A stretch of DNA of 64,000 nucleotides from a virus. Below are positions 19,541-45,036 of the stretch, piece by piece. Each line of letters begins with the position of its first letter. The stretch's first letter is position 1. The stretch lies in the IMG/VR virus record IMGVR_UViG_3300042197_002234, positions 64,001 through 128,000 of that record. One strand, given 5' to 3'. The position numbers were made by a program, and so were the translations under genes. A model generated the notes under the pieces. It saw only the letters and a list, made by a program, of their open reading frames with translations, ran no database searches and was not told the origin of the DNA.

Positions 19541-20281
19541 TTATGAGGTTAAATATTTGTCCAAATCAGCATCAGTTGGTACTGAAGCTTTTGGTTTAGT
19601 TGTTCCTGCGGTCGCACCAGATGAAGCTGCGGTTTTAAATTCTTTATCATTACAAGTGTAGTTTAATACTTGCTTTGTTGTAATGTCACCTTTTCTTCCA
19701 TTACCAAAGTATCTAAAATTACCAATAACAAATGAACCATTTGATTCCATTTTAATACGCTTCTTATTGGCTAATGTTGGTACACATGGGAAATTTTTGA
19801 ATGTTTCCTCAGCACTTTTTGAAGCCGCTGGTGCTGGGGTTACTTTAGGTACAGTAATTTTAATTGAATTTTCTTTAAAAATATCATTACCACTACTATC
19901 AACATCATCTTGGTAGGTCATTGTAATTCCAATACTTTTTAGGTGATTATAAATTTGTTCAACGTAACTTAAATCGTCGGTACCAAACTCACCATTCAAT
20001 ATATTAACAATTGTTATATACTCACCCATACCATAAGCGGGAATTAAACCATTAACCAAATTAAACATATTACCGTCTTTAATTTCCTGTATTGCAGCAA
20101 CAATTGCGTCCTCATCAGTACCCATACCTACAGCCGCTTTAGCCATTTTGGCAGCAATTCTTTTAGCTGATTTGGTTAATTCATCACTTTGTTCGGTTAA
20201 ATATTGATTTTTTGTGGCAGTTTCATGAAGATTTAAAATTCTATTTCTCTCATCTTCATTTATTAAAAATAAATTTTTCAT
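19541..20281 (-). CDS. Protein with annexin-like repeat
   Basis: 'KAAVGMGTDEDAIVAAI' matches the annexin GxGTDE motif; N-terminus INEDERNRILNLH. Confidence 0.55.
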   Translation of the reverse strand: MKNLFLINEDERNRILNLHETATKNQYLTEQSDELTKSAKRIAAKMAKAAVGMGTDEDAIVAAIQEIKDGNMFNLVNGLIPAYGMGEYITIVNILNGEFGTDDLSYVEQIYNHLKSIGITMTYQDDVDSSGNDIFKENSIKITVPKVTPAPAASKSAEETFKNFPCVPTLANKKRIKMESNGSFVIGNFRYFGNGRKGDITTKQVLNYTCNDKEFKTAASSGATAGTTKPKASVPTDADLDKYLTS

Positions 20282-20343
20282 TTTTTACTAGTTTTTATTA
20301 TATAAATATCACACAATCCAAAAAAAAGTCGTATCTTTGTATT

Positions 20344-20453
20344 GTAATTAAAGGAAACGATTCAGATACAAGATATTTAATTACGTTGTCAGGGCGAAAG
20401 AATCCTGATTTAAACAGGGAAGGAACGATTCAGATACAACCCCCTGTTTTTTT
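20344..20453 (+). ncRNA. Candidate three-hairpin sRNA with two AACGATTCAGATACAA loops
   Basis: TATCTTTG at 20332-20339; stems gtaattaaa/tttaattac, tcagg/cctga, aaacaggg/ccctgttt plus T-tract; no convincing ORF. Confidence 0.65.
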
Positions 20454-20865
20454 ACACCCAAATTACAACTTGGTCTTTACCAACCCTAAATGGATTGTCA
20501 TATGATTCCCTAAAAACTGTTGTAATATATAGTTTCCAATATAAACCCATTTCTTGGTTTGGAACTACTGACATAGCCATTGCCTTTTCGGGTGATTTAA
20601 TAACAAAGGCCTCGCCTTCAGTAATGTCTCCTGATATAATTTTTTCAGCAATTTCATTTCTTGCTTGTTGAACAATATAACTTATTTCACCATTAGAGAT
20701 TTCTCTCTCGTCATAATTTTCAATACCCTCTCTTTTTCTTCTAAGGTAGGCGTGGTGTGTTCTGTCAATATCAAATGCAAAGGTAACTTCGATATTTGCT
20801 GATATTTGAGCAATCCTTTTTTCTAACAAAAGAGATTCCTTGATTAATTGACGTAATAGATTCAT
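20452..20865 (-). CDS. Hypothetical protein
   Basis: N-terminus MNLLRQLIKESLLLE; late motif upstream. Confidence 0.55.
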   Translation of the reverse strand: MNLLRQLIKESLLLEKRIAQISANIEVTFAFDIDRTHHAYLRRKREGIENYDEREISNGEISYIVQQARNEIAEKIISGDITEGEAFVIKSPEKAMAMSVVPNQEMGLYWKLYITTVFRESYDNPFRVGKDQVVIWV

Positions 20866-26857: not shown

Positions 26858-27052
26858 ATGATTATTGTAAAAGTAGACAAAAATTCTAATTTGGAAAAGG
26901 CCTTAAAAGTTTACAAAAGTAAAATTATTAAGACAAGACAACTTTCTGAAATTAATAACAGAAAAGAGTTTGTTAAAAAATCGGTTAAGAGAAGACAACA
27001 GATTTTAAAGGCTAAATACGTACAAAAAACATTTAAATCAAATAACGATTAA
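26858..27052 (+). CDS. rpsU: Ribosomal protein bS21
   Basis: M.IVKV...NLEKALK.YK.K..KT..L.E...RKEFVK.SVKRR..I.KA.Y; 64 aa; antisense within the head genes. Confidence 0.9.
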   Translation: MIIVKVDKNSNLEKALKVYKSKIIKTRQLSEINNRKEFVKKSVKRRQQILKAKYVQKTFKSNND

Positions 27053-43549: not shown

Positions 43550-44400
43550 CTTAGGCTGAGAATACACCTTTTGTTGAGAACCTTTAGGGACATTATTGTT
43601 TCTTCCCGTTTCCACTTCCTTTTGAGAAGTATTTCTCAGTGACGGTTATTTAGGTGAACCACTCCTTGAGGTTTGAATTACTCTCATCTTACTTGACTCT
43701 TTCCGAGGATGCCTCCCCAGTTCGTCCTTGCGGGACTAAAGGTTTTTCGGATAACTACACGTTGGCTTGGGACCTCAGTGTGCAATGAACGGCTCATTAC
43801 TAAGTAGTCACCTTTCATTCAAACCTGACGGACACTTTTCCTTTTATTATTATTAAATGGTCTTTAATTTCAAATAAAGAGTTTTGTGTCGTGGATTGTC
43901 GAAGTAGTGGTCCGTCTGAGGATTTGTTATCTTTTGAACAACAAAATACCAAACTACTCCGTGAGATGTCCCCACCTCCATACTTCAAGACTACTTCGAG
44001 AAAATCCCTTTGGTAAAGGAAATTCAAGGATAATGTCGGCACCACCCGTTTGTTATCATACCTTTCGGTTTTAAGTATCCTATGATATTGGAACCCTCAA
44101 TAATGATTTTGGAAAACCATGTTTTGATTGATTCCTACGGGTTATTCCTATTGGTGTTCCCACCTCAAACAGACGACCCACATCGCCTGTTCATCTAACC
44201 ACTTTCCCTACAGCGTTGCCCTCGGTACTAAAGGTTAAACGGTATCCCGCTTGTGTACTCGACCTCGGTTTCCCAAGACGCAAATCTGTCAACACAACAG
44301 ACTCACTTTATCCCACTTTCGTGGTTTATTTAACGACCATACACGGCCGATTATCGTTTTCAAGTTATCATCACTCCGAAGAGTTACTTTCACCTGATGG
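43550..44400 (-). ncRNA. GOLLD-like giant ornate RNA (~850 nt)
   Basis: GC-richer, no credible ORF, many GNRA/UUCG hairpins; the segment GGAGTAG..ATTTTGTTGTTCAAAAG..ACACAAAAC..ACGGGAAGAAACAATAA..CAGCCTA (43960-43552) resembles my recollection of the conserved GOLLD 3' half. Confidence 0.6.
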
Positions 44401-44413
44401 ATAATTCAATAAG

Positions 44414-44741
44414 TCAAAGAACTTTTGAGAGTTGTATCTGAATCGTTGTCATTCTCAATTGTTTTACAAAGTTAAGAAGATTTTTTCTATTTGTCAAATT
44501 TTTCTTAAACTTTTTTTTTGATTACTATAACCGTTGTGGTAATATGTTTCACTTACACTTTAAATGCGAAGGACATCTGCTTTATTTCATACAGTTGAAA
44601 GTTTGTCCCGTAGTCACTTTCCTCACATACAACAGTAGCCCTACGGACCTAGACTGTTTCTGTAACCAATATTTTCAAAGAACTTTTGAGAGTTGTATCT
44701 GAATCGTTGTCATTCTCAATTGTTTTACAAATTTAAGAAGA
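44414..44741 (-). repeat. Direct repeat pair: promoter - hairpin - boxA-like unit
   Basis: 44414-44470 identical to 44675-44731 (57 nt, 261 nt apart), extendable with 1 mismatch to 44480/44741. Confidence 0.95.
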
Positions 44742-44781
44742 ATTTTTTAATCTTCCAAATTTTTAAAGAACTTTTTTTTAA

Positions 44782-44866
44782 TTTCAGACTGTGCTACCGT
44801 CACACCTAATTTGATTAATTATGTGGTTAATTAATCTCGGAATTACACCATGTGTCTTTTCTGAAA
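44782..44866 (-). ncRNA. Candidate four-way-junction sRNA
   Basis: Closing stem tttcaga/tctgaaa; hairpins acac/gtgt, gattaatta/taattaatc, tgtg..gcaca; TACCTTTG promoter 44874-44881. Confidence 0.5.
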
Positions 44867-45036
44867 TGTTTTACAAAGGTAATAAAAAAAATGTGTCTGT
44901 CAATACCCTGAGCGATATTTTTTTTTAATTTAATAATAAATATAGCCATTTTGTTAAAAATTCATTTTTTTTTAGCTTGATTGTTGATTTTTTGGTATTT
45001 GTAACCTATTTATTAATCAAATTAAATTATTTAACT

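Follow-up and report, generated by a model that had tools for sequence, protein, structure and literature searches.

Background

Sponge RNAs of the CsrB/RsmZ type display a short GGA motif several times in hairpin loops. The phage RNA described here is similar in that one motif is repeated in hairpin loops, but this motif is 16 nt long rather than a short GGA, and the RNA has no Rfam match to such sponges. The pseudo-ToxI and captured ToxI of phage PhiTE, which act against ToxIN, are likewise phage-encoded repeated small-RNA units, with a dose that is raised by copy number and a proposed role in neutralising a host protein (PMC3475682). Each ToxI unit is an H-type pseudoknot, and the units form a tandem array which precedes the toxin (PMC5086642), whereas the phage hairpin is a simple stem with a 20-nt loop, for which a cognate host toxin locus was not found. 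The Racr RNA anti-CRISPRs (PMC10651486) are also small, promoter-driven phage hairpin RNAs which act as protein decoys, but the hairpin studied here is not similar to the type II-C repeats tested and has no Rfam CRISPR match. Within the Bacteroidota, FopS/RbpB of Bacteroides provides another multi-copy sRNA family, in which FopS acts by base-pairing through a single-stranded 5′ seed (PMC11697453), but the phage hairpin has no Rfam match to FopS.

Type III toxin-antitoxin systems (ToxIN/AbiQ, CptIN, TenpIN) resemble the present locus in the close linkage of a repeated small RNA to an RNase-like gene, and by definition their antitoxin repeats precede the toxin within a single operon and are separated from it by a terminator (PMC5086642). 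In the phage locus the RNA and the gene are convergent and not bicistronic, the gene product has a predicted RelE/BECR-like fold, and the RNA also occurs without the gene. Nor is there a pseudoknotted monomer of the type III kind, as the alignment is accounted for by one covarying stem and an open loop, for which no conserved partner was seen. On these comparisons the RNA would work most like the protein decoys (pseudo-ToxI, Racr, CsrB), while belonging to none of the described families by the tests made. Few phage counter-defence RNAs are known (pseudo-ToxI, Racr, tRNAs) and every case has exposed a host system. Sequence comparison indicates that the RNA described here is a real, mobile hairpin RNA of Bacteroidota phages, previously uncatalogued, and it represents a widespread and highly conserved phage RNA module which is missing from Rfam.

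Results and discussion

The locus and its four motif copies

The stretch of DNA analysed (hereafter the window; 64,000 nt, positions 64,001 to 128,000 of IMG/VR record IMGVR_UViG_3300042197_002234) comes from a 195.5-kb (195,527-nt) virus genome which is approximately 65% complete. With a T4-like major capsid gene and a bS21 gene (26858-27052) in the window, and a tmRNA, 25 tRNAs, a freshwater-1 RNA and GOLLD among the RNAs of the window and genome, its gene and RNA content fits that of the bS21 myophages that infect Bacteroidetes, as described in PMC9723584; no mention of non-coding, small or intergenic RNA turned up when that paper was searched by term.

The 16-mer which a sequence-only reading of the window had reported is present exactly at 20356-20371 and 20424-20439 on the plus strand and at 44432-44447 and 44693-44708 on the minus strand. 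There are no further exact copies in the 195,527-nt genome, giving four in all, and allowing up to 3 mismatches adds just two other matches, both unrelated. All four copies are enclosed by a stem, as had been proposed, with arms at 20344-20352/20376-20384 (9 bp) for copy 1 and 20412-20419/20442-20449 for copy 2, both on the plus strand, and TTGAGA/TCTCAA for both minus-strand copies. The proposal that every copy has a different stem holds for the plus strand, but the window shows three stems and not four, because the minus-strand copies share theirs as parts of a duplicated promoter and hairpin unit. The claim of a promoter before each copy was correct for three of the four, for which TAnnTTTG boxes are found at 20332-20339 (plus) and at 44728-44735 and 44467-44474 (minus), but not for the copy at 20424, which lies within the terminal hairpin of the transcript that also carries copy 1.

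On the plus strand, the sRNA is a three-hairpin RNA which runs from just past the TAnnTTTG box to a U tract. The box (20332..20339) is of the Bacteroidota housekeeping-sigma -7 type, lies 16 nt ahead of loop 1, is conserved in alignment A3 and is a host-type promoter of the sRNA, which is presumably active early. Hairpin 1 (20344..20384) displays copy 1 on its 9-bp stem; it is followed by a middle spacer hairpin (20389..20408), which is variable in sequence, covaries and is missing from shorter relatives, and by hairpin 3 (20412..20453), with copy 2 in its loop and then the U tract. Hairpin 3 and the U tract would form the terminator of the sRNA, and hairpin 3 probably also terminates the convergent gene; a simple terminator scan gives it no score because its loop is longer than 8 nt. 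The divergent neighbour (19541-20281, minus strand) is commonly found upstream only in the closest phage group and has no Pfam match at E 0.001. An overlapping plus-strand ORF (20212-20505) was rejected as spurious, because the distance between loops in relatives does not keep to multiples of three.

A near-invariant loop on covarying stems

Across the phages the hairpin unit is approximately 40-45 nt long, with a covarying stem of 6-10 bp and a loop of about 20 nt (20 nt being the modal length) that reads RRN-AACGAUU[C/U/A]AGAUAC[A/U]A. The single-sequence fold of the sRNA is only moderately stable (z -1.74) and so the support for the fold is comparative. An initial constrained-fold control was too lax, with 52% of chance hits passing, and a contiguous-stem test was used instead. 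Among the matches listed, a contiguous stem of at least 6 bp was present in 110 of the 119 phage copies (those with a promoter upstream or occurring in multiples) compared to 17 of 149 chance bacterial hits, and cross-paired flanks reached the same threshold in 30%. The covariation score of the 8-bp stem in 61 non-redundant units was 0.714 compared to 0.271 for shuffled pairings, a value which is not to be read as a probability because the rows are related, although the stems are plainly different sequences; the 61 units contain 177 two-sided stem changes and all slid registers score much worse. The output of RNAalifold on alignment A3 was left aside, as it paired upstream promoter sequence and missed hairpin 3 owing to register shifts.

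The promoter and the motif share a strand in 65 cases and lie on opposite strands in 2, the promoter-motif spacing is 16 or 19 nt in 58 of the 65 promoter-linked units, and G-U cells in the stems outnumber A-C cells (47 vs 21). The strand bias and the G-U excess bear out the earlier suggestion of a structured small RNA, with a conserved loop on variable stems, that acts at the RNA level; on these grounds, together with the existence of promoterless copies, a DNA-level operator or cruciform was rejected. The hairpin RNA is presumably transcribed.

Loop bases 2-7 and 9-14 are nearly invariant and base 8 is C, U, A or, once, G. The invariance of the core is somewhat overstated because the search patterns fixed part of it; second loops, which were found free of pattern constraint, show the same base conservation. 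No variants missing base 8 were found in hairpins. One lineage carries A5G+U12C, hinting at an internal pair, and a scan for the A5G/U12C variant gave 118 stretches, which is about the chance rate. Each RNA has one to four loops with a loop-to-loop spacing of 32-69 nt, from which the multi-loop RNA is judged not to be coding, and the same motif is shown repeatedly in the loops of variable stems, which is a sponge-like display.

Distribution among phages

The conservation in relatives that the RNA-level proposal had called for was found: an exact scan of IMG/VR gave at least 118 stretches with the motif, to which the C8U variant adds 71, and the motif recurs in well over 100 phage contigs, including viruses of freshwater Bacteroidota. 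Two to four loops are present at approximately 30 loci among the matches listed by the exact scan. The settings comprise sRNAs of one to four loops, promoter arrays ahead of GOLLD and sites between tRNA genes, with U-tract-ended copies ahead of a tRNA cluster (L021, L066, L342, L390, L404) and promoterless copies wedged between tRNA genes (L389, L004, L347, L388). Three single units are found in the 634-kb phage LR745206, which is of a size class with Bacteroidetes as predicted hosts (PMC7162821), and an intact two-loop RNA is present in a complete phage of 31 kb that is unrelated and has terminal repeats, where it lies among small genes each with its own promoter; in this 31-kb phage gp23 is absent and no homolog of the convergent BECR-fold gene, described below, was detected. 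The unit is autonomous and modular, and is mobile between unrelated phages.

A blastn search of INPHARED gave promoter-like matches only, the match in a Lak phage not being the motif, and an Rfam search of 20200-20600 and 43950-45000, at gathering and E-value thresholds, gave only snoRNA noise (E ~0.5-1). The core 12-mer was not found in the searchable literature; the hairpin RNA may be among the unnamed candidates of a viral candidate-RNA catalogue (PMC10690425).

Relationship of the hairpin to GOLLD

On the minus strand of the window, a unit of -7 box and single-loop hairpin (44686..44735, loop 44693-44708) is followed by a boxA-like sequence (44675-44684) and then by a separate conserved RNA cassette of approximately 150 nt. 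Its duplicate (44425..44474, loop 44432-44447) precedes a boxA-like sequence (44414-44423), after which comes the GOLLD gene. The 3′ part of the GOLLD RNA (43553..43961, minus strand) matches Rfam RF02032 with 327.7 bits, and its 5′ half (43961-44410, minus strand) is conserved, extends approximately 450 nt past the Rfam model and can be aligned with relatives over about 800 nt.

That two copies begin transcripts here, directly ahead of boxA-like sequences and GOLLD, and that the distance from the promoter is fixed at 16/19 nt, could indicate a cis element of stable-RNA transcripts (a boxB/put-like antitermination site, a signal for processing or a stabilising 5′ element) whose factor would also be titrated by the stand-alone RNA. 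We consider this quite improbable. The region upstream of GOLLD in relatives is an array of rRNA-like tandem promoters, each with a short cassette, and the last promoter ahead of boxA and GOLLD is usually without the motif hairpin, which occurs instead as a cassette of its own higher in the array, in the gaps between tRNA genes, or with a U tract at its end; many copies have such a U tract and then a fresh promoter. A hairpin just before boxA, as a boxB-boxA leader would have, occurs in the window but not in most relatives examined, and seven host rRNA leaders that were inspected have tandem promoters and boxA but not the motif loop. The idea that the sRNA titrates a factor of the GOLLD leader is therefore not upheld, as the GOLLD-proximal promoter lacks the hairpin in most relatives examined, and on the arrangements compared the hairpin is not a GOLLD-leader element.

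Upstream of GOLLD, exchangeable small-RNA cassettes form an array with the architecture of the tandem promoters of host rRNA; in its other cassettes likeness to rRNA was not above 8-10-mers. The cassette between the two hairpin units (44500-44672, minus strand) is structured and conserved over approximately 150 nt, is also present in L096 and is without an Rfam match, and a promoter-driven multi-hairpin cassette (44775-44873, minus strand) stands at the head of the array. Relatives hold further cassette types, for example one with the core GAUGAAAGAUACUCGG in L027, L067, L304-L307 and L365.

The convergent gene and its link to the RNA

The sRNA converges on a gene for a 137-aa protein (20452..20865, minus strand), just upstream of which an A/T-rich ATTTATAT box would be a late promoter. 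The protein has an N-terminal (I/L)xE-type tag and a predicted RelE/BECR-like fold in which H38 and R42 are conserved (at least 90%). The best structural alignments (VIA) of its predicted model (pLDDT 80) are with CdiA-CT, RelE/ParE, colicin E5 and T4 RegB, and nearly all of the top VIA rows belong to the RelE/ParE/CdiA/colicin E5/RegB group, with Z scores of 5-6 (maximum 6.0) that are weak. The protein matches a RegB-annotated viral model (E 1.4e-3); it has no Pfam match, and Foldseek and sequence searches against the PDB gave nothing significant. A putative BECR RNase is a plausible assignment from the model. BECR-like domains are also found fused in larger phage proteins (nucleotidyltransferase, cytidylyltransferase-like, PAP2 and DUF6267; BFVD and Atlas hits), and the domain may be a reusable RNA-binding module and not a stand-alone toxin.

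Fifty-eight loci were fetched via the protein, with the motif RNA present in 46, a pseudoknot-like RNA in 7 and neither in 5 (one of which is cut by a contig end). The multi-loop form usually faces the BECR-fold gene, the motif RNA abuts the 3′ end of the gene, and the two are convergent in all loci examined. In a metagenome scan, all 15 real hits lay at the 3′ end of the gene (14 with the ORF visible, 1 cut by a contig end), while the upstream neighbours varied.

Such linkage, in 46/58 loci and in 15/15 metagenome hits despite differing upstream neighbours, could mean that the RNA is an antitoxin or inhibitor of the neighbouring RelE/BECR-fold protein, so that an early RNA would silence a late-made, probably head-packaged putative RNase in a type III-like but convergent arrangement. 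The resemblance of the fold to RelE, CdiA-CT, colicin E5 and T4 RegB, with conserved His and Arg, would agree with this, as would the single hairpin which phages without the adjacent RNA keep elsewhere (G006, G007, G009). We regard it as unlikely, as the RNA is found without the gene in the complete G014 and in host MAGs, and in L032 both loops are kept while the gene is cut down to a C-terminal remnant of its last 12 codons; in L033/L093 and L025/L402 other genes replace the BECR gene and the RNA is retained. The slot may also hold the unrelated pseudoknot RNA (in 7/58 loci, and in 37/93 of the loci of that RNA), two tRNA-Leu genes or nothing, the distant protein homologs being those that face the pseudoknot RNA or the two tRNA-Leu genes. 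The RNA type switches at least 8 times on the protein tree (a quick tree with long branches), there is no sign of co-evolution in that the loop is unchanged while the protein drifts to approximately 30% identity, and the structural similarity is weak at Z 5-6 for an RNase activity that is itself putative. On the simplest reading, the slot accepts small RNAs driven by host promoters, and their last hairpin would serve to end the late gene as well.

The pseudoknot RNA is a second, likewise uncatalogued phage RNA of approximately 130 nt, with a 5′ H-type pseudoknot (GGGUYGAACCRAGA...ACCC...CUYGG), a T-loop-like hairpin and a terminator, and is without an Rfam match. It occurs in 93 IMG/VR stretches (loci L272:2840-2990 on the minus strand, L290, L507-L510, L512 and L649-L741), in 37 of which it is convergent to the same BECR gene, and never near the motif RNA; its pseudoknot recalls those of type III antitoxins. 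In L511 (2411-2610, minus strand) the slot that the sRNA normally occupies is taken by two tRNA-Leu-like genes, opposite a distant BECR homolog. In one phage group (L452, L454, L463, L474) the gene upstream of the sRNA resembles, by eye, ribosomal protein S1, and S1 is the cofactor required by T4 RegB.

A proposed decoy for a host protein

The reading which we favour, at a probability of about one half, is that the RNA serves early in infection as a decoy that sequesters a host protein; the earlier idea of a sponge or decoy is kept as the best reading, and a GOLLD-leader factor as its target is given up. The stem would need only to pair, and the loop of approximately 20 nt carries the near-invariant sequence with its one free position. 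Host RNA polymerase would transcribe the unit from strong rRNA-type promoters, or tRNA polycistrons would release it by cleavage, either of which should lead to early accumulation at high copy number. The phages would obtain a higher dose by linking 2-4 loops within a single sRNA or by multiplying promoter and hairpin cassettes, and the loops would capture and hold a protein of the Bacteroidota host that recognises RNA in a sequence-specific manner. The most plausible target would be a nuclease of host defence or a factor associated with the ribosome, given that the RNA is found in the company of tRNAs, tmRNA and GOLLD and that its core agrees with the 16S 790 loop apart from one added base.

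The invariant loop on freely covarying stems argues for a decoy, as do the variable number of loops per RNA, the stand-alone copies and those wedged between tRNA genes, the units in the 634-kb and 31-kb phages, the persistence of the RNA where the BECR gene is a remnant or has been replaced, the four bases accepted at position 8 and the fact that no complementary target stood out. On the other side, a natural host counterpart is rare (three related MAGs), the 790-loop match is post hoc, with an extra base in every natural copy and an A5G+U12C lineage, and the strong linkage to the BECR gene would be explained only through the shared terminator.

A long single-stranded loop could instead pair, in the manner of C4-like RNAs, with a host or phage transcript as a trans-acting antisense RNA, and most of the substitutions (C8U, A1G, G4A, A5G) are wobble-compatible. 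The occurrence of C, U, A and G at base 8 fits an exposed base better than strict pairing, and A or G at this position would disrupt a central pair. The complement is not found beyond chance in the phage genome, the 13-mer occurs about as often as the control on either strand of 201 Bacteroidia genomes, and no significant duplex was found with 16S, 23S, tmRNA, GOLLD, the tRNA region or the neighbouring mRNA. Antisense action is thus not evident and we hold it to be very improbable. An RNA anti-CRISPR, in the form of a solitary repeat mimic, was considered as Bacteroidota type II-C repeats likewise end ...ACAAC after an internal -7 box, but in a sample of ten II-C repeats 6-11 of the 16 positions do not match the motif (types I-B, III and VI were compared via Rfam only) and there is no Rfam match to a CRISPR or riboswitch. 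Judged against these repeats the hairpin is not a type II-C CRISPR repeat mimic, and either an RNA anti-CRISPR or a small-molecule aptamer seems very improbable.

When base 8 is skipped, the ten invariant loop bases of the hairpin core, GATTAGATAC, equal ten loop bases (786-795) of 16S helix 24, the 790 loop. The probability of such a match in shuffles, calculated post hoc, is 0.007 for 16S and 0.02-0.03 when 23S and both strands are added, and plain local alignment gives p 0.06-0.14. Compared to helix 24, the hairpin always has one extra base, lacks the closing pair and has a larger loop, and an internal A5-U12 pair is not expected from the geometry of the 790 loop in rRNA. We take the match as a suggestive lead. 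It is doubtful, and decidedly unlikely, that the hairpin is a deliberately imperfect copy of the universally conserved 790 loop, a mass-made rRNA decoy which absorbs a ribosome-targeting host nuclease or factor or disarms the phages' own packaged RelE-like RNase; if this were true, it would extend to rRNA the phage tRNA trick against anticodon nucleases, and would indicate that Bacteroidota have a defence directed at the ribosome which has yet to be described.

For the protein decoy in general, the retention of the loop almost letter for letter in unrelated phages of 31-634 kb suggests one conserved Bacteroidota binding partner that is worth neutralising and, as the unit is modular and only 45 nt long, the partner should be directly fishable in Flavobacterium johnsoniae.

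Copies of the RNA in host genomes

Mimicry of a host antitoxin RNA, which the sequence-only reading had offered as an alternative, is not supported, as host copies were found in only three MAGs and no toxin gene was recognised alongside them. An exact scan of GTDB gave matches at about chance level, with one real host copy (L225), and exact copies in 201-401 sampled Bacteroidia genomes were at the level of reversed controls. The covariance model found true copies, scoring 33-43 bits, in three related Bacteroidota MAGs, G222, G225 (twice) and G228, and nothing above 29 bits in approximately 450 further Bacteroidota genomes. No BECR homolog was detected in the three MAGs. The G222 and G225 copies consist of a short hairpin, the motif hairpin and a U tract, and are flanked by ordinary genes, a Pmp3/YqaE gene for example; the copy in G228 is truncated by its contig start. 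The host copies are rare and may have been captured from phages. The first hairpin resembles the 16S helix-34 region in two host copies (p 0.03 and 0.0007; post hoc) but not in the third. In these host copies (L225:6371-6450, L421, L449; G222 and G225 only) the first hairpin has a conserved AYGACGUCA loop, which is either 16S helix-34-like or a palindromic DNA site.
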